A stretch of DNA of 64,000 bases from Embleya hyalina (GTDB lineage Bacteria > Actinomycetota > Actinomycetes > Streptomycetales > Streptomycetaceae): positions 42,337 through 106,336 of the forward strand of contig NZ_BIFH01000051.1 of NCBI RefSeq assembly GCF_003967355.1. Direction: 5' to 3'. A program made the translations under genes and the position numbers. Numbering within the stretch: the first letter of the stretch is position 1; every line of letters begins with the position of its first letter. Shown in pieces: positions 1 to 61,650 of this stretch. The notes beneath the pieces were generated by a model. That model did not search any database and was not told the origin of the DNA. It worked only from the letters and a program-made list of their open reading frames with translations.

Positions 1-431
1 ATCGGCACGACTACGCGGCGGCCGACACGGATGTGGTGAGCGAGGCGCGGAAGGACTATCGGGAGTTGTTCGAGTCGACCGTGTACGAAACCGAGCACCC
101 GGTCGTGCGGATACACCCGGTCACGGGTGAACGCACGCTGGTTCTGGGGGCGTTCGTGCGTCGGCTGGTGGGCTTCGACGCCGAGGACTCGGCGGCGTTG
201 CTCGCGCTGTTCCGGAAGCACGTCACTCGGCCCGAGAACACCGTGCGGTGGCGGTGGCGGGCGGGTGACGTGGCGATCTGGGACAACCGGGCGACCCAGC
301 ATCGGGTGATCACCGACTTCGACGGGGCGCGGCGGTTGTTGCACCGGGTGACGATCGACGGGGACGTTCCGGTGGGGGTGGATGGTCGGCCCAGCCTCGC
401 GCTTCTGCCTGTCCGCGAGGCGGTGGCCTAG
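1..431 (+). CDS. TauD/TfdA-family Fe(II)/2-oxoglutarate-dependent dioxygenase, C-terminal part (5' end lies outside the window)
   Basis: The frame is open from the window edge. The C-terminal motif block (…[14 protein letters not shown]…WDNRATQHR…) is typical of taurine-dioxygenase-like enzymes. GC3 is high. Confidence 0.7.
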
Positions 432-790
432 GACGGCGGGCCTGGCCGGCTCAGGTCGGCCTGGGTCGGCTTGCCGTCCTCAAACGCCGGACGGGCTGAT
501 CGGCCCGGCCTTCGGCCGAGGCGGCCTCAAACGCCGGCCGGGCTGGAGTTTCGCCCGGTCGGCGTTTCGCCCGACGTTGCGGAGGTGGCACCGGACGCCG
601 GCGTGGGTGGATTTGGCCTGCCGGCGTTTCAACCGACGTTGCGGAGGTGGCGCCGGACGATGTTTCGGGCCTGGTTGCGGGGTTGGCTCTGGACACCGGT
701 GGGCGGCGGTTTGGGTCGCCGGCGTTTCGTCCGACGTTGCCGGGTGTGGCGCCGGACGTTGGTGGGCGGTTTTGTGTGTGGTGTTGGTCA
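431..790. repeat. Intergenic repeat cluster. It holds a copy of the GGCCTCAAACGCCGGCCGGGCTGG element (about 470-550) followed by about three tandem ~75-bp units (cggcgtttcNNccgacgttgcNggaggtggcNccggacg, about 545-770).
   Basis: The repeats are directly visible. A copy of the first element with about 90% identity over ~73 bp recurs at 29050-29130. The cluster lies between convergent gene ends. Confidence 0.8.
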
Positions 791-1198
791 GGTTGGGTTT
801 CGGGTTGGTGTGCGGCGGCGGGTTGCCAGTTCGAGGAGGTGGTGGAGGGTGGCCTGCTTCGGGAGGGTTCGCGGGAGGCGGTCGCCGTAGGGGAGGCGGG
901 AGCGGGCCTTGCGCCACAGGCGGTCCGGGAGGGTTTTGGGGTCCTGGTGGTAGCGGACCTTGGTGAGGAGTCGGCGGGCCTCCGCGTCGGCCGGGTTGAG
1001 GGCGAGGGTGACCGCCAAGTGTTCGGCGGCGGTGTTCCAGCGGGCGCTTCGGGCCGCCCGTACCGCGTCGTTGAAGTGGCGGTCGGCCAGTTCGACGAGG
1101 CCGGCGAGCGCGCCGAGGTCGCCGCCGCAGGCCGGGCAGCGGCCGGTCAGGTCGGCGATCCGGCGGCGGCACAGGGGGCAGGTGATCGCGAACGCCAT
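788..1198 (-). CDS. Small zinc-ribbon (CPLC…CPAC) plus TPR-like helical protein, 136 aa; last gene of the Hsp70 operon
   Basis: Internal ATG at 1198..1196 lies 1 nt after the Hsp70 stop (TGAcATG). GC3 is high. The sequence has a CxxC…CxxC motif followed by a helical repeat region. Confidence 0.6.
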   Translation of the reverse strand: MAFAITCPLCRRRIADLTGRCPACGGDLGALAGLVELADRHFNDAVRAARSARWNTAAEHLAVTLALNPADAEARRLLTKVRYHQDPKTLPDRLWRKARSRLPYGDRLPRTLPKQATLHHLLELATRRRTPTRNPT

Positions 1199-1199
1199 G

Positions 1200-3763
<2,564 letters not shown>

Positions 3764-3767
<4 letters not shown>

Positions 3768-9834: not shown

Positions 9835-9908
9835 GCGCCGCTAGCTCAGTTGGTTAGAGCAGCTGACTCTTAATCAGCGGGTCCGGGGTTCGAGTCCCTG
9901 GCGGCGCA
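9835..9908 (+). tRNA. tRNA-Lys (anticodon CTT)
   Basis: The cloverleaf folds manually. The 7-bp acceptor stem GCGCCGC/GCGGCGC pairs, the anticodon loop is CTCTTAA, and the T-arm is GGTTCGAGTCC. Confidence 0.85.
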
Positions 9909-9922
9909 CAGCGGCAACATCG

Positions 9923-19400: not shown

Positions 19401-20008
19401 CTTCTGCAATCCCGGTGGACCTCGACCTGCTCCGCACCCCACCCCCCAGGGAACGCGCCGACGCGGCCCGCAACCGCGCCGCGATCCTGGAAGCCGCCGC
19501 GGCGCTGTTCGCCGAACACGGCGTCGAATCGGTATCCATGGACCAGATCGCCACGGCGGCCGGCGTCGGCAAGGGCACGTTGTTCCGCCGCTTCGGCGAC
19601 AAATCCGGCCTGGCCACGGCCCTCTTGGACACGCGCGAACGCGCGCTCCAGGAAGCCATCCTCGGCGGCCCGCCCCCACTCGGCCCGGGAGCCCCGGCGG
19701 AGGACCGCCTGGCAGCGTTCCTCGACGCCTACGTCGACTACCTCCTGGAGCACCTCGACCTGATCCGCATGTCGGAGACCTCGACCCCGGGCGCCCGCTA
19801 CCGAATCGGCGCCTACCGGTTCTGGCACCGCCACGTGGCGATCCTGCTCCCCGCGAAAACCCCCGACCCGACCTACACGGCCCACGCCCTGTTGGCCCCG
19901 CTGTCCGCCGAACACGTCACGGCCCTGCTCCCGGAACTGGGCCCGACCCGCATCCGAGAGGGCGTCCTCCACCTGGCCGAGTCGACGATCGGAACCCCGC
20001 CCCGCTGA
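19370..20008 (+). CDS. TetR-family transcriptional regulator, 212 aa
   Basis: Its HTH RNRAAILEAAAALFAEHGVESVSMDQIATAAGVGKGTLFRRF matches the TetR family. Confidence 0.9.
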   Translation: MPDDINGPQSASAIPVDLDLLRTPPPRERADAARNRAAILEAAAALFAEHGVESVSMDQIATAAGVGKGTLFRRFGDKSGLATALLDTRERALQEAILGGPPPLGPGAPAEDRLAAFLDAYVDYLLEHLDLIRMSETSTPGARYRIGAYRFWHRHVAILLPAKTPDPTYTAHALLAPLSAEHVTALLPELGPTRIREGVLHLAESTIGTPPR

Positions 20009-24622: not shown

Positions 24623-24770
24623 GGCGCCTCCCCAAAGACGACATGCCGAAAGCTAGCGTGGGCGGGGTCGACGCCACCAGCACAAGACCGGCCGAAACCC
24701 AGCGGAAACCCACCGGGACGAACACCGGGGACCGACTCCGGGGACGAAACGCCGGGGAAAAACACCGTTG

Positions 24771-24854
24771 TGCGGCCGAAGGGACTCGAACCCTCATATC
24801 CTCTCGGACGGCAGGACCTAAACCTGCTGCGTCAACCAATTGCGCCACGGCCGC
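24771..24854 (-). tRNA. tRNA-Leu (anticodon TAG), long variable arm
   Basis: Reverse complement GCGGCCGTGGCGCAATTGGTTGACGCAGCAGGTTTAGGTCCTGC…GGTTCGAGTCCCTTCGGCCGCA. The acceptor stem pairs and the anticodon loop is TTTAGGT. Confidence 0.8.
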
Positions 24855-27345: not shown

Positions 27346-28989
27346 GTGTCCCGCACCGCCGACCTGGTCCTGCGCAACGCGCTCATCCACACCGTCGACC
27401 CCGATCTGCCCGAGGCCGAGGCGCTGGCCGTCCGGGACGGGCGGATCGCCTGGGTGGGCGCGGACGCCGACGCGGCGGCCTGGATCGGTCCGGAGACCAC
27501 CGTGCTCGACGGCGCCGGGCGGCGGGTGCTGCCCGGCTTCATCGACGCGCACAACCACGTCCGGCTCGGTTCGGACGACGCCTGCGTACAACTGGCGGGG
27601 GCGCGCACGTTGGCCGACATCCACGAACGGATCGGCGCCTGGCTGGCGGCCAACCCGGACGCCGAGTGGGTCGAGGCCGAGGCGTTCGACTACTCGGCGA
27701 TCCCCGACGGACGCATGCCGCGCGCGAGCGACCTCGACCCGATCACCGGCGACGTGCCGGCCTTCGTGCTCAGCTACGACGTGCACACGGCGTGGCTCAA
27801 CAGCGCCGCGATCGAGCGGCTCGGCATCACCCGGGACAGCGACGTGCTGCCCTTCGGCCGGGTGGACAAGGACCCGGAGACGGGCGAACCGACGGGCTTC
27901 GTCAAGGACTTCGCGGTGCGCGGCCTCTCCCGTGACGGACATCGCGCGCTGCGGGACCTGGGCGTGCCGTGGGCCTCGGCCGACCGGCAGTACGGGCGGC
28001 TGGCCAAGAGCCTGGACGACGCGATCCGGTTCGGCATCACCACCGTGGTCGAGCCGCAGAACTCGCTCGACGACCTGGCGCTGTACACCCGGGCGCGGCA
28101 CGAGGGCCGGCTGCGCTCGCGGATCGTCGCGGCGCTGTTCCACCCGCGCGGCACCACCGACGCCGACCTGGACGAATTCGCCGCCGCGGCACGTGAGTTC
28201 GCCGACGACCGGCTGCGGGTGGGGCCGCTGAAGCTGTACATCGACGACGTGGTCGAGCCGCGCACCGCCGCGCTCCTGGAGCCGTATCGCGGGTGCGCCC
28301 GTCATCGGGGCGAGACGTTCTACCCGGCGGAGGAGTTCGCCGACCTGCTGGCGCGGCTGGACGGGCGGGGCTTCCAGTGTTTCGTGCACGCGACCGGCGA
28401 CCGGGGCATCCGCACCGTCCTGGACGCGGTCGAGCACGCCCGGGCGGTCAACGGCGAGCGCGACGCGCGGCACCAGGTGGTGCACGTGGAGTGCCTGGAC
28501 CCGGCGGACGTGTCCCGCTTCGCCGAGCTGGGCGTGGTGGCGTGCATGCAGCCCAGGCACTGCGCGCCGGAGATCGCCGGGCCGGGGCGGGACTGGGCGG
28601 AGAACGTCGGCGAGGAGCGCTGGCACAAGGCGTGGCCGATGCGGAGCCTGCGGGCCGCCGGGGCGGTCCTGGCGCTGTCCAGCGACTGGAACGTGGCCGA
28701 GATGGACCCGATGGTCGGCGTGTACACCGCGCTCACCCGCGCGCCGCTGGCGGGCGGGCCGGCCTGGATCCCGGAGGAGACGCTCGACGTGGAGGCCACG
28801 ATCCACGGCTACACGATGGGCTCGGCCTACGCGAACTTCCTGGAGCACGAGCGCGGGTCCCTGACGGTGGGCAAGCTCGCCGACTTCGTCGTGCTCTCAC
28901 GCGACATCATGCGGGTCGCTGCCGCGGAGATTCCGGGCACGGTCTGCGAGGTCGTCGCGGTCGGTGGCGAACTCGTGCACACGGCCTAG
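27346..28989 (+). CDS. Amidohydrolase-family metal-dependent hydrolase (amidohydrolase 3), 547 aa
   Basis: FIDAHNHV metal-binding HxH, …HATGDRG…, …SDWNV…. Confidence 0.8.
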   Translation: MSRTADLVLRNALIHTVDPDLPEAEALAVRDGRIAWVGADADAAAWIGPETTVLDGAGRRVLPGFIDAHNHVRLGSDDACVQLAGARTLADIHERIGAWLAANPDAEWVEAEAFDYSAIPDGRMPRASDLDPITGDVPAFVLSYDVHTAWLNSAAIERLGITRDSDVLPFGRVDKDPETGEPTGFVKDFAVRGLSRDGHRALRDLGVPWASADRQYGRLAKSLDDAIRFGITTVVEPQNSLDDLALYTRARHEGRLRSRIVAALFHPRGTTDADLDEFAAAAREFADDRLRVGPLKLYIDDVVEPRTAALLEPYRGCARHRGETFYPAEEFADLLARLDGRGFQCFVHATGDRGIRTVLDAVEHARAVNGERDARHQVVHVECLDPADVSRFAELGVVACMQPRHCAPEIAGPGRDWAENVGEERWHKAWPMRSLRAAGAVLALSSDWNVAEMDPMVGVYTALTRAPLAGGPAWIPEETLDVEATIHGYTMGSAYANFLEHERGSLTVGKLADFVVLSRDIMRVAAAEIPGTVCEVVAVGGELVHTA

Positions 28990-29464
28990 CGGCGGGCCGG
29001 TGGGGGGCGGGCCGGCCTGCGGCCCACCCGGCCTCGAGCGCCGGCCGGGCTGGGTGGCCTCAAGCGCCGGCCGGGCTGATCTACCCGGCCTCCGGCCGAG
29101 GCGGCCTCAAACGCCGGCCGGGCTGGATTTTGCTCGGCCCGCGTCTCAAGGTCGGCGCGAACCCACCCACGCGAATTCAGGCCGAGCCCACACCAGCCCG
29201 GCCGGCGCTTGAGGCCGCCCGACCGGACTCCGGGCAACCCAACCCAGCCCGGCCAGCGCCTGAGGCCACCCGCCCGGATTCAGGCCGAGCCGACACCAGC
29301 CCGGCCGGCGTTTGAGGCCGCCCGACCGGACTCCGGGCAACCCAACCCAGCCCGGCCGGCATCTGAGGCCACCCGCCCGGACTCAGGCCGAGCCGACATC
29401 AGCCTGGCCGGCGTTTGAGGCCGGTTGGGCAGGGTTCGGGCGGGTCGGGGGGCGTTGTGGGGGG
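28990..29464. repeat. Repeat-element cluster. Direct copies of the GGCCTCAA(A/G)CGCCGGCCGGGCTG element (about 29020-29130) are followed by about 2.5 tandem ~102-bp units (29176-29425) carrying the same element in inverted orientation.
   Basis: The reverse complement of cctcaagcgccggccgggctg is cagcccggccggcgcttgagg, which is present three times downstream. The cluster lies between convergent gene ends. Confidence 0.8.
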
Positions 29465-29941
29465 TCAGGGTGATTCGAGTTTGAGGTCCTTGAGGAGCTT
29501 GGCCACGTGGCCCGTGGCGCGGACGTTGTACAGCGCGCGTTCCAGCTTGCCGGTCTCGTCGACGATGAACGTGGAGCGGATCACGCCCTTGACCGTCTTG
29601 CCGTACATGGTCTTCTCGCCGAAGGCCCCGTACGCCTCCAGCGTGGCCTTGTCCGGGTCCGCCAGCAGGGTCACCCGCAGGTTCTCCTTCTCCCGGAACC
29701 TGCCCAGCTTCTCCGGCTTGTCCGGGGAGATGCCGAGCACGTCGTAGCCGGCCCCGGCCAGCAGGTCGAGGTTGTCGGTGAAGTCGCACGCCTGCTTGGT
29801 GCAGCCCGGGGTCAGCGCGGCCGGGTAGAAGTACACGATGACCTTGCGGCCCGCGTAGTCGGACAGCGAGACGGACTTGCCGTCGGCGTCGGACAGGGTG
29901 AAGGCGGGGGCGGTGTCGCCCGCCTGGAGGCGGTCGCTCAC
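29465..29941 (-). CDS. bcp: Thiol peroxidase Bcp (peroxiredoxin, bacterioferritin comigratory protein), 158 aa
   Basis: …FYPAALTPGCTKQACDF… peroxidatic Cys motif. RBS GAGGAG precedes the GTG. Confidence 0.85.
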   Translation of the reverse strand: MSDRLQAGDTAPAFTLSDADGKSVSLSDYAGRKVIVYFYPAALTPGCTKQACDFTDNLDLLAGAGYDVLGISPDKPEKLGRFREKENLRVTLLADPDKATLEAYGAFGEKTMYGKTVKGVIRSTFIVDETGKLERALYNVRATGHVAKLLKDLKLESP

Positions 29942-54353: not shown

Positions 54354-54971
54354 ATGCCCGACGCCCCCACCGACCGCCCCGAACGCGCCGACGCCGCCCG
54401 CAACCGGCGCGCGATCCTGCGCGCGACCGAGGAGCTGCTGGCCCGGCACCGCCCGGAGCAGATCTCGATGGAGCAGGTCGCCGCGGCGGCGGGCGTCGGC
54501 AAGGGCACGGTGTTCCACCGCTTCGGCAGCCGGATGGGCCTGATGGAGGCCCTGATGGCGGAGCGCGCGCTCGCCCTGACCGAGGCGGTCACCACCGGCC
54601 CGCCGCCGCTCGGCCCCGGCGCCCCGCCCCGCGAGCGCCTGCTCGCCTTCCTCGACGCCATCGTCGACGTGGTCGCCCGCAACAAGGGCCTGATGGCCGC
54701 ACTCGGCCACGCCGCGAGTACCGCTCCGAAACCGGACGTCGACCCCACCGAGGACCCGCGCACCGCACACCCGGTCTACGGGTTCTGGCACGGACACATC
54801 GCCGACCTGCTCGCCGCCCACCGCCCCGGCCTCGACGCCGAGACGCAGGCCCACCTCCTGCTCGCCGGCCTGCAAAGCCGATCCGTGTTGCGCCTGCTCG
54901 AACAGGGCGAGGGCGAACGGGTCGCCGCCGCCGTCCACACCCTGGCCGAAGCCCTGCTCACCGCCCCCTGA
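54354..54971 (+). CDS. TetR-family transcriptional regulator (paralogue of the 19370 TetR), about 205 aa
   Basis: HTH RNRRAILRATEELLARHRPEQISMEQVAAAAGVGKGTVFHRF. It shares the …GPPPLGPGAP.ERL.AFLDA… core with the other TetR. Confidence 0.9.
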   Translation: MPDAPTDRPERADAARNRRAILRATEELLARHRPEQISMEQVAAAAGVGKGTVFHRFGSRMGLMEALMAERALALTEAVTTGPPPLGPGAPPRERLLAFLDAIVDVVARNKGLMAALGHAASTAPKPDVDPTEDPRTAHPVYGFWHGHIADLLAAHRPGLDAETQAHLLLAGLQSRSVLRLLEQGEGERVAAAVHTLAEALLTAP

Positions 54972-60786: not shown

Positions 60787-60833
60787 ACGGGCGGCGGGCG
60801 GGTCCGCACGGCGCACCCGACTCGCCCGCCCCC

Positions 60834-60869
60834 GTCACCGGTCACCGGTCACCCGTCACCCGTCACCCG
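60834..60869. repeat. Heptanucleotide microsatellite (GTCACC[G/C]) x5
   Basis: gtcaccggtcaccggtcacccgtcacccgtcacccgt in the RDD/RDD intergenic region. Confidence 0.8.
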
Positions 60870-60921
60870 TACAGACGCGACACGCCAGGGTTGGCCGAAG
60901 GCGTCACGCTCACGTCGGGTT

Positions 60922-61650
60922 ATGTCCGCTTTACTCAGTTTTATGACAGGAAGCCCACCGCCCCCGCCGCCGCCTTCCGATCCGTCCGGCAACGACCCGA
61001 CGGGCGGGAACCCGTCCGGACAACAACCGCCCGCCGGCAGCCGACCTCCGTACGGGCAGGATCCGACCGGGCAACAACCGCCCTACGGACGGGATCCGTC
61101 CCAACAGCCGCCGTACGGCCAGGACCCCACGGGCCAGTACCCCTACGGCCAGGGCGGCCCGTACGGCCAGGAGCCGACCTACGGCGCGGGCGCGGGCGGC
61201 GGATACGGCGGCGGGCCGACGCTCGGCGGGCCGCTGCGCCGACTGGTCGCGCGGATCATCGACAGCCTGATCGTCGGCGTGGTCGCCGGCCTGATCTCCT
61301 GGCCGGTCACCGGCAACGACTACGACGACGTGTCGTTCGGCGCCCAATTCACCTCGGGGCTGATCTTCTCGCTGATCTACTTCGTCTACGAGGGCTTCCA
61401 ACTCGACCGGTTCGGCCGCACCCTCGGCAAGCGGGTGGTGCGCATCCGGGTGGTTCGGGTGGCCGACGGCGGGCCCATCGCGGGGTCGATCGCGTGGACC
61501 CGCGCCGGCGTCTACACCCTTCCGGTCATCGTGCCCTGTCTGGGCACGTTGTTCTGGCTGGTCAACGTCCTGTGGCAGTTGTGGGATCAGCCCTGGCACC
61601 AGTGCCTGCACGACAAGGCCGCGCGCACCACGGTCATCCGCGGGGCGTGA
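60922..61650 (+). CDS. RDD-family membrane protein with Pro/Gln/Tyr-rich repeat N-terminus (PPYGQDPTGQQ x4-5), 242 aa
   Basis: Peptide repeats are encoded by imperfect 33-nt DNA repeats (about 61030-61150). The RDD core is …RLVARIIDSLIVG… …[14 protein letters not shown]. Confidence 0.75.
   Translation: MSALLSFMTGSPPPPPPPSDPSGNDPTGGNPSGQQPPAGSRPPYGQDPTGQQPPYGRDPSQQPPYGQDPTGQYPYGQGGPYGQEPTYGAGAGGGYGGGPTLGGPLRRLVARIIDSLIVGVVAGLISWPVTGNDYDDVSFGAQFTSGLIFSLIYFVYEGFQLDRFGRTLGKRVVRIRVVRVADGGPIAGSIAWTRAGVYTLPVIVPCLGTLFWLVNVLWQLWDQPWHQCLHDKAARTTVIRGA

Follow-up and report, generated by a model that had tools for sequence, protein, structure and literature searches.

Repeat clusters at two convergent gene junctions

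A 64,000-nt stretch of Embleya hyalina DNA (the window), the only part of this genome that was viewed, contains two intergenic regions filled by clusters of a short repeat with the core GGCCTCAARCGCCGGCCGGGCTG(G). The first region (locus 1, 432–787, 356 bp) lies between the 3' part of a gene for a TauD/TfdA-family dioxygenase (3–431, + strand, stop codon ending at 431; Pfam TauD, E = 1.4e-27) and a gene for a conserved, cysteine-rich hypothetical protein of 136 amino acids (788–1198, - strand), which is the last gene of an HSP70-like operon. The second region (locus 2, 28990–29464, 475 bp) lies between a gene for an amidohydrolase (Amidohydro_3; 27346–28989, + strand), a translated 539-amino-acid stretch of which is 100% identical to an Embleya hyalina protein with its next relatives in other Embleya species, and the gene for an AhpC/TSA-family peroxiredoxin (bcp; 29465–29941, - strand), an orthologue of which has been called as a 158-amino-acid AhpC-TSA protein. 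Both junctions are convergent, as a preliminary description of the window had stated, and the element which it reported to recur at the second locus with about 90% identity over ~73 bp does so, since 476–551 and 29056–29131 are identical at 69 of 76 positions (91%) and a longer alignment (468–551 with 29048–29131) covers 84 nt at 88%.

A search of the window with the 24-mer GGCCTCAAACGCCGGCCGGGCTGG, allowing up to three mismatches, finds 10 copies of the core, against 0.00 expected from 100 dinucleotide shuffles. Two of these are found in locus 1 (476–546), starting at 476 and 523 on the + strand, and eight in locus 2 (29030–29422), starting at 29030, 29056, and 29103 on the + strand and at 29193, 29244, 29296, 29347, and 29399 on the - strand.

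In locus 1, the first core (476–499, + strand; GTCCTCAAACGCCGGACGGGCTGA) belongs to the GTCC/GGAC stem subfamily described below and the second (523–546, + strand) matches the consensus GGCCTCAAACGCCGGCCGGGCTGG without a mismatch. A spacer hairpin, CGGCC-TTC-GGCCG (506–518, + strand), stands between the two forward cores and forms a 47-nt composite unit together with a core. The 3' part of the second core can pair tail to tail with an inverted half-core, GAAACGCCGACCGGGC (553–568, - strand, 2/16 mismatches), giving a hairpin at 529–567 with arms of 15 nt (529–543 and 553–567, 93% complementary) and a 9-nt loop; the fold of 515–575 reaches -38.3 kcal/mol (z = -3.5), and locus 1 as a whole is modestly structured (z = -2.6). 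The same tail-to-tail hairpin is found in the sister species Embleya sp. NPDC056575 (L118). A second inverted half-core remnant follows at 615–630 (- strand, 3/16 mismatches). The locus-specific tandem array, which the preliminary description had placed at 545–770 with a period of about 75 bp, is present (555–780, + strand) and confined to this locus, but its actual period is 62–63 nt. Its units begin at 555, 617 (shortened to 36 nt), 653 (diverged), and 716, and three of them have CCGGCGTTT or TCGGCGTTT at their start, which is what is left of the inverted core; in the diverged unit at 653 it is degraded. Tandem Repeats Finder made no call for the locus-1 array.

Locus 2 consists of three forward cores followed by five inverted ones. 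The forward cores (29030–29053, 29056–29079, and 29103–29126, + strand) stand in two registers, 26 nt between 29030 and 29056 and 47 nt with a CGGCC hairpin spacer before 29103. The inverted cores form an array (29163–29423, - strand) with a period of 51 nt and a higher-order period of 103 nt, for which Tandem Repeats Finder reports 5.0 copies at period 51 and 2.5 copies at period 103 with 93% matches. The whole locus folds into a giant hairpin (-342.8 kcal/mol, z = -11), its central part alone reaching -92.2 kcal/mol (z = -10), so that the pairing of the core with its inverted copies anticipated from the sequence is found here as well as in the hairpin of locus 1. Locus 2 also has a central hairpin of its own (GCTCGGCC...GGCCGAGC).

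Distribution of the family

The family was followed beyond the window by an exact-pattern scan of one genome per species, in which the matching sequence was taken as eight-kb blocks. At least 117 such blocks carry the core, in about 37 genomes (~27 Streptomyces, seven Embleya, and three doubtful others), and collecting copies with up to four mismatches within the sampled blocks and the window gives at least 469 copies, grouped into 152 clusters that each hold between 1 and 18 of them; the locus sample was chosen by exact matches, so these copy numbers and this taxon range are lower bounds. In a plasmid collection, the core occurs at 40 or more places on one 3.1-Mb Embleya replicon and at 10 places on a 5.7-Mb one, and the matches are confined to Embleya megareplicons and a few Streptomyces plasmids. 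The core is thus part of a large dispersed repeat family in Embleya and many Streptomyces; the claim of a dispersed, multi-copy extragenic family with hairpin-forming inverted copies is borne out, and the contrary case considered beforehand, that only two copies exist and arose by local duplication, is ruled out by the 40 or more places on a single Embleya replicon and the 117 or more blocks.

The two Embleya "plasmids" in PLSDB, NZ_CP108777.1 (3.13 Mb) and NZ_CP108785.1 (5.73 Mb), have the size of second chromosomes and are dense in repeats, and their entries are almost unannotated, with seven features in one of them. No core match was found in phage records and viral contigs, which gives no sign of a phage vector. 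Isolated matches outside the Streptomycetaceae were found in a Euzebyales metagenome-assembled genome (MAG; L053 4759–4782), where the copy sits within a predicted open reading frame (ORF), in an Actinomycetota MAG (L031), and in a 546-bp, low-coverage Amycolatopsis contig flagged UNVERIFIED_CONTAM (L019). These matches may be chance or contaminants and not true members of the family.

Structure of the repeat unit

The unit is about 26 nt long, Y-GGCC-TCAARCGCC-GGCC-GGGCTG-RN, and can be divided into a stem of 4–5 bp, a 9-nt loop whose sequence (TCAARCGCC) is conserved, and a single-stranded 3' tail (GGGCTG) that does not vary. Pairing of the two GGCC blocks gives four base pairs of the stem, to which a Y:G pair at the base is added. 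A position table of the 469 copies shows T-GGCCTCAARCGCCGGCCGGGCTG(G) to be conserved with sharp edges between unconserved flanks.

The stem is supported by compensatory changes, which link GGCC/GGCC (268 copies), GTCC/GGAC (42), and CGCC/GGCG (19) in a set of copies re-collected by an anchor that left positions 1–3 and 14–17 free. GCCC/GGGC and CTGC/GCAG occur once each, mixed combinations are rare, and about 35 of 369 copies are non-complementary at the stem. The strongest mutual-information pair is 2:16, and the four stem pairs are 97% paired among 150 distinct copies. Double-change cells number 26, against 3.5 ± 1.7 in shuffles (0 of 500 reach this value), and controls with slid positions all collapse; the copies share descent, and such counts do not represent independent events. 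The outer pair, T or C opposite G18, is present in 94–96% of copies. The GTCC/GGAC and CGCC/GGCG subfamilies occur together in the same genomes. An alternative stem joining positions 8–13 with 18–22 was rejected, being incompatible with the covariation of 1:17 and 2:16 and interrupted by the A that is common at position 9. We view the 4–5-bp stem as a feature for recognition more than as a free hairpin that is stable.

Arrangement and gene context

Neighbouring copies in the same orientation are most commonly spaced 26 nt apart, head to tail (81 cases), with further peaks at 47–49, 62–65, and 88–93 nt. Units multiply locally, either head to tail at 26 nt or with spacer hairpins at 47–49 or 62–65 nt. 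The linker hairpin CGGCCTTCGGCCG marks the 47–49-nt class, which is mostly found in Embleya and occurs at both window loci, and the linker module GACCGTGCCGGTCAnnGAT marks the 62–65-nt class of many Streptomyces. In these 62–65-nt Streptomyces arrays, every core has a second conserved module, GACCGTGCCGGTCA(C/A)(A/T)GA(T/C), directly upstream of it; this module is a small hairpin as well and recurs in different species (for example L096 2546–2930, L030 5930–6210, and L028 7757–7970). What moves or is selected in Streptomyces may thus be a composite of two hairpins, about 63 nt in length.

Of the 152 clusters, 58 are single copies, others are single-direction runs of up to 18 copies, and 22 are mixed. 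In the mixed clusters the order is always forward then inverted (22 cases against 0 for the reverse, p = 5e-7; some of these clusters are orthologous to one another, leaving fewer than 22 independent cases), with the tails facing each other. The same order holds whether the neighbouring genes are convergent (5), divergent (4), or tandem (6), and is therefore a property of the element; gene orientation as its cause was rejected on the same ground. Tight inverted doublets fold strongly, as in Embleya sp. NBC_00896 (L127 4228–4290), where the hairpin reaches -52.3 kcal/mol (z = -8.6). In one block labelled Streptomyces albidoflavus NRRL B-1271 (L055 1960–2130), a palindrome of about 150 nt (GGTACCTCCTCACAAACTGCAGGGTGCGGGGTCA ... 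TGACCCCGCACCTTGCAGTTTGTGAGGAGGTACC), unrelated to the core, is flanked by a forward array of six units on one side and by two inverted units on the other.

The copies are extragenic, with 5 of 375 assessable copies lying within predicted ORFs, the gene calls being crude ones based on G+C content at third codon positions (GC3). A coding role of the arrays was rejected, as they sit between two stop codons and copies almost never fall in high-GC3 ORFs. Spurious long ORFs do run over the window arrays (382–966, 471–890, 28293–29315, and others), with peptides such as GLKRRPGW and PQTPAGL in several frames. Clusters were assigned to convergent (29), tandem (39), and divergent (14) junctions, against a background of 88, 228, and 92, respectively. 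The convergent junction that was first described as the typical niche is thus only mildly enriched (29/82 against 88/408, p = 0.01) and divergent junctions are depleted, with many clusters also found at tandem and some at divergent junctions.

History at orthologous junctions

Each of the two window loci has orthologues in other Embleya species, in which the copy number differs. The small protein has orthologues that are 82–92% identical in named Embleya species, the TauD-family neighbour is also present at the Embleya orthologous loci, and the junction between the two genes carries the family in four Embleya species, each arranged differently, with the first core positionally orthologous in all. 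There are two forward cores with the expanded array in E. hyalina (356 bp), two forward cores with a single array unit in Embleya sp. NPDC056575 (188 bp), two degenerate forward cores with five inverted cores at 26 nt in NBC_00896, and one forward with two inverted cores of the GTCC/GGAC type in E. scabrispora (98 bp), the orthologous spacers in the other Embleya measuring 188, 206, and 98 bp. The array motif CCGACGTTGCGGAGGTGGC occurs at locus 1 of the window and once, as a single unit, at the orthologous locus of the sister species, and nowhere else in the ~1 Mb of sampled sequence; the locus-1 array is therefore a tandem expansion, by about 180 nt, that is specific to this lineage. Within its seed lies an inverted half-core, GCCCGGCCGGCGTTT, which is intact in the sister species and of which 553–568 and 615–630 are the remnants in E. 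hyalina. Because its units carry these inverted-core remnants, the array is a degenerate counterpart of the inverted array of locus 2 and not an unrelated extra. In Embleya sp. NPDC050493 (L119 3412–4065), the TauD gene and the repeat cluster are both missing downstream of the small protein, and the 654-bp stretch found there has no called gene and no core copies, which indicates that the junction is rearranged.

At the amidohydrolase/bcp junction, the order of forward (+) and inverted (-) cores is +++----- in E. hyalina, ++----- in Embleya sp. MST-111070, a degenerate ++- in E. scabrispora, and ++-- in NBC_00896, and Yinghuangia and Peterkaempfera have another neighbour gene and no copies. 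The difference between E. hyalina and MST-111070 is a 25-nt gap of about one unit, the copy at 29030 being the one that MST-111070 lacks. The inverted copies at the bcp junction of NBC_00896 (L127 4260–4283 and 4356–4379) end in TTTGC(C/T)CGGCC instead of CCAGCCCGGCC; they are without the CTG tail, and a tail-less variant thus persists at an orthologous site.

Clusters therefore stay at the same gene junction across species while their copy number shifts. Orthologous cores are identical at 143 of 154 and 44 of 44 positions, compared with 194 of 278 and 107 of 138 for the remaining intergenic bases; combined, this is 187/198 against 301/416 (93–100% against 70–78%, p = 1e-11). The cores are conserved above the spacer and are therefore constrained or homogenised. 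Among distant Streptomyces pairs, arrays of 400–900 bp occupy junctions that measure only 80–150 bp in the other genome.

Comparison with known repeat systems

Repetitive extragenic palindromic sequences (REPs) are found after genes, between unidirectional and convergent ORFs, and often as inverted dimers, and in other phyla they are believed to function as RNA elements; Actinomycetota go unmentioned in this 2013 survey (PMC3733652). The present family is similar to the REPs and bacterial interspersed mosaic elements (BIMEs) of Escherichia coli and other Proteobacteria in its short (20–40 nt), GC-rich, extragenic, multi-copy units (PMC3733652). It shares with them the position after genes and between co-directional and convergent ORFs, the larger hairpins given by inverted copies, and homogeneous cores with drifting flanks, and it shares with BIMEs the conserved linker motifs (CGGCCTTCGGCCG and GACCGTGCCGGTCAnnGAT) and a copy number that varies among relatives. 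In contrast to REPs, the stem is only 4–5 bp long with a large conserved 9-nt loop, the lone unit is not stable, no REP-associated tyrosine transposase (RAYT) was found, and the host phylum is Actinomycetota; in contrast to BIMEs, the units are mostly arranged head to tail at 26 nt and do not alternate. The REP-like character proposed at the outset is upheld in behaviour, but the core has neither the GTAG nor the CGTC tag, no RAYT was found, and a lone unit is not a thermodynamically stable palindrome.

Similarly, the inverted doublets with a short loop and a long hairpin (L127 4228–4290 and window 529–567) recall the REP doublets (REPINs) of REPIN-RAYT systems in Pseudomonas and enterobacteria, as do the fixed orientation of the arms (22:0) and, in line with the REPIN literature, vertical inheritance with long persistence at the same loci. 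Here, however, doublets are a minority and direct arrays dominate, no single-copy RAYT gene flanked by repeats was found, and the same consensus is used across two genera, whereas REPINs are lineage-specific. The CGTC-tagged REPs, including Rickettsia palindromic elements, are comparable in having no known dedicated transposase (PMC3733652); their hosts are Alphaproteobacteria, and the present core lacks the CGTC tag and is unrelated in sequence.

Mycobacterial interspersed repetitive units (MIRUs) are 40–100 bp long, are found inside operons in a single orientation, and may contain small ORFs. By description, the present family shares with MIRUs and variable number tandem repeats an actinobacterial host, an intergenic position, and head-to-tail units of tens of bases with variable copy number, but MIRUs are not known to have a conserved hairpin-plus-tail core or inverted sets. 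A CRISPR array was rejected, as the spacers are near-identical within an array, the period ranges from 26 to 103 nt between loci, and inverted sets are present. As neither tag is present and no association with a RAYT was found, the repeats are placed outside the RAYT-dependent REP superfamilies and probably form a new REP-like family. Unusual in it are the covarying mini-stem with its conserved loop and tail, the strict polarity, the 26-nt head-to-tail arrays, and the use of one consensus by more than one genus. A search of the available, incomplete literature found neither the core sequence nor an account of this type of family in Streptomyces or Embleya, and an earlier description elsewhere is possible.

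Interpretation

We consider it probable, at roughly 0.6, that the region is one cluster of a family of REP/BIME-like short hairpin repeats native to the Streptomycetaceae. The arrays would change through replication slippage or unequal exchange, and this growth and shrinkage is directly supported by the one-unit gap at locus 2 and the expansion at locus 1, where the array was seeded by the inverted half-core and its adjacent spacer. The cores would be held near the consensus by selection or gene conversion, possibly because a conserved trans-acting factor reads the hairpin, loop, and tail, and by analogy with REPs and RAYTs this factor or another enzyme acting on single-stranded DNA could spread the units to new junctions. 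When transcribed, the inverted sets could serve both convergent genes as 3'-end hairpins independent of a U tract, acting as transcript stabilisers or termination barriers. In Streptomyces, a U tail is missing from most transcript 3' ends, and the formation of a stem is presumed to be a key determinant of 3' boundaries (PMC8780764), which makes the 3'-end hairpin role plausible.

Several results weigh against this interpretation. No GTAG or CGTC tag appears in the position weight matrix of the 469 copies, a lone unit folds no better than its shuffles (z = +1.7 both as RNA and as DNA), and the stem rests on covariation among copies that are related by descent. No transposase or other protein family is enriched beside the clusters, the recurring neighbours being large housekeeping families (ABC transporters, SpoIIE, ROK, SDR, aldo-keto reductases, and LysR). 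With E. coli RayT (a query 100% identical to the annotated E. coli rayT) and IS200 TnpA, phmmer gave no hit in six-frame ORFs of the ~1 Mb of sampled loci, and a tblastn search of the plasmid collection with RayT returned 41 records, none from Embleya or Streptomyces despite 8.9 Mb of Embleya megareplicons; these searches cover the sampled loci and the plasmid collection, with the main chromosomes outside, and do not prove that a RAYT is absent. No Y1-transposase match came from the ORFs that lie between forward and inverted arrays, which, judged by eye from their sequences, resemble ordinary enzymes (RdgB/HAM1-like, SGNH hydrolase-like, and aldose-epimerase-like). Between relatives that are 97% identical over 21.6 kb, no new insertion and no other gain or loss of a cluster was seen, and no target-site duplication was resolved where filled and empty Streptomyces junctions were aligned with BLAST anchoring, the species being too distant for the insertion boundaries to be placed. 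Mobility is therefore read only from the dispersal of the family and its presence or absence between distant species. In addition, no canonical T-run terminator was detected (locus 1 has no site and locus 2 a single weak one, neither count departing from what shuffles give), the bidirectional-terminator role of the loci being one that we infer, and the orientation of pure arrays between co-directional genes is only weakly biased with respect to transcription (sense 22, antisense 11, p = 0.08).

The repeats could also be arrays of binding sites for a host DNA-binding protein, such as a nucleoid-associated or topology factor or a dimeric regulator that reads GGCC-N9-GGCC half-sites. They would then exist because the protein needs phased intergenic sites, comparable to integration host factor (IHF) and gyrase at the BIMEs of E. 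coli. Conservation of the core far above the neighbouring spacer, a single 24-nt consensus in two genera, the regular 26-nt phasing, the thermodynamic weakness of the free hairpin, the lack of a strong orientation bias against transcription, and a stem without strand asymmetry (15 G:T against 10 A:C, not significant) are all in keeping with such sites. However, the matched half-site changes (GTCC/GGAC and CGCC/GGCG in the same genomes) fit base pairing better, the strict tail-to-tail rule (22:0) is not predicted, and the asymmetric loop and tail mean that the site is not a symmetric operator. We regard binding arrays as an unlikely primary explanation.

It is also rather improbable that the unit is first of all a cis-acting RNA motif of 3' untranslated regions, that is, a processing, stabilising, or termination signal that is kept for its function and is not selfish DNA. 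The location of clusters after genes, the excess of sense over antisense arrays between co-directional genes, the conserved loop and tail, cores that are more conserved than the spacer, and the T or C at position -1 opposite G18, which pairs only on the strand as given, would all suit an RNA element, as would the view that REPs in other phyla act as RNA (PMC3733652). On the other hand, the sense bias is not significant (per copy, 101 against 86), clusters are also found in divergent, promoter-side spacers, and neither locus nor a Streptomyces array gave more than chance-level Rfam matches even at E <= 10; at the gathering threshold, Rfam recognised two tRNAs only in the whole window.

The preliminary description had also called the element similar to a MITE (a miniature transposable element with inverted repeats), in which case the clusters would be internally deleted transposons with the cores as terminal inverted repeats for a DDE transposase encoded elsewhere. 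Terminal inverted repeats would produce the observed forward-then-inverted order with outward GGCC ends, and several pairs enclose 175–210 bp. Some transposon ends, such as those of Tn7 and Mu, bear multiple direct transposase-binding sites, which counts in favour of this possibility. However, most clusters are solo or purely direct (58 single; up to 18 copies in one direction), the element length is variable, the sequence between the arms is unrelated across loci or consists of ordinary genes, no target-site duplication is visible, and no transposase lies nearby or is enriched. Without an element bounded by terminal inverted repeats, a resolved duplication, or a related transposase, the MITE label is withdrawn, and this explanation is disfavoured as very unlikely. 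Chance, or a single local duplication of GC-rich sequence between the window loci, is likewise disfavoured and can be regarded as refuted, as it has the high genome G+C and nothing further in its favour, against 0 matches in shuffles, hundreds of copies in dozens of genomes, and the independent conservation of each locus at its own Embleya junction.

Within the interpretation as REP/BIME-like repeats, a more speculative proposal, to which we give little credence at present, holds that a conserved non-RAYT factor of the Streptomycetaceae, putatively a new kind of single-strand-specific recombinase or an RNA-binding or RNA-processing protein, recognises the unit of hairpin, loop, and tail. If this were true, Actinomycetota would have a "replicator plus partner" system of a new type that resembles REPINs, and constraint by the partner would account for the 24-nt consensus across genera, the covarying stem, and the tail-to-tail polarity. 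If a partner enzyme exists, the family would also offer a test of whether REP-like families persist without a RAYT. Work on repeats of the REP type has dealt almost exclusively with Proteobacteria, and families of this kind are little described in Actinomycetota. With its consensus defined and its stem supported, the family allows the masking of arrays that now yield spurious "LKRRPGW"-like ORFs, which automatic annotation could miscall as hypothetical proteins. The copy-number differences between relatives are possible strain-typing markers, and the repeats offer a concrete candidate for the transcript ends without a U tract that prevail in Streptomyces.

Other features of the window

The operon that ends at locus 1 (788–3767, - strand) comprises a gene for an 855-amino-acid HSP70/MreB-like protein, a 1-nt gap, and the gene for the 136-amino-acid protein, which has no Pfam match and has more distant homologues in Frankia and in one Streptomyces. 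This pair and a further upstream gene are kept in the Embleya loci that were fetched, and the pair looks like a non-canonical Hsp70 operon. Exact-protein look-ups gave no entry for two of the window's proteins. A 147-nt direct repeat (78% identity) is found at 19451–19597 and 54381–54527, 35 kb apart and probably within paralogous coding sequences. The tandem heptamer CCCGTCA is present in 5.7 copies (93% matches) at 60831–60870, and more short tandem repeats occur at 61114–61185. The two tRNA genes are those for tRNA-Lys(CTT) at 9835–9909 (+ strand) and tRNA-Leu(TAG) at 24770–24854 (- strand), and the tRNA-Lys sequence is 98.8% identical over 83 nt to stretches in two of the Streptomyces loci (L074 and L025).

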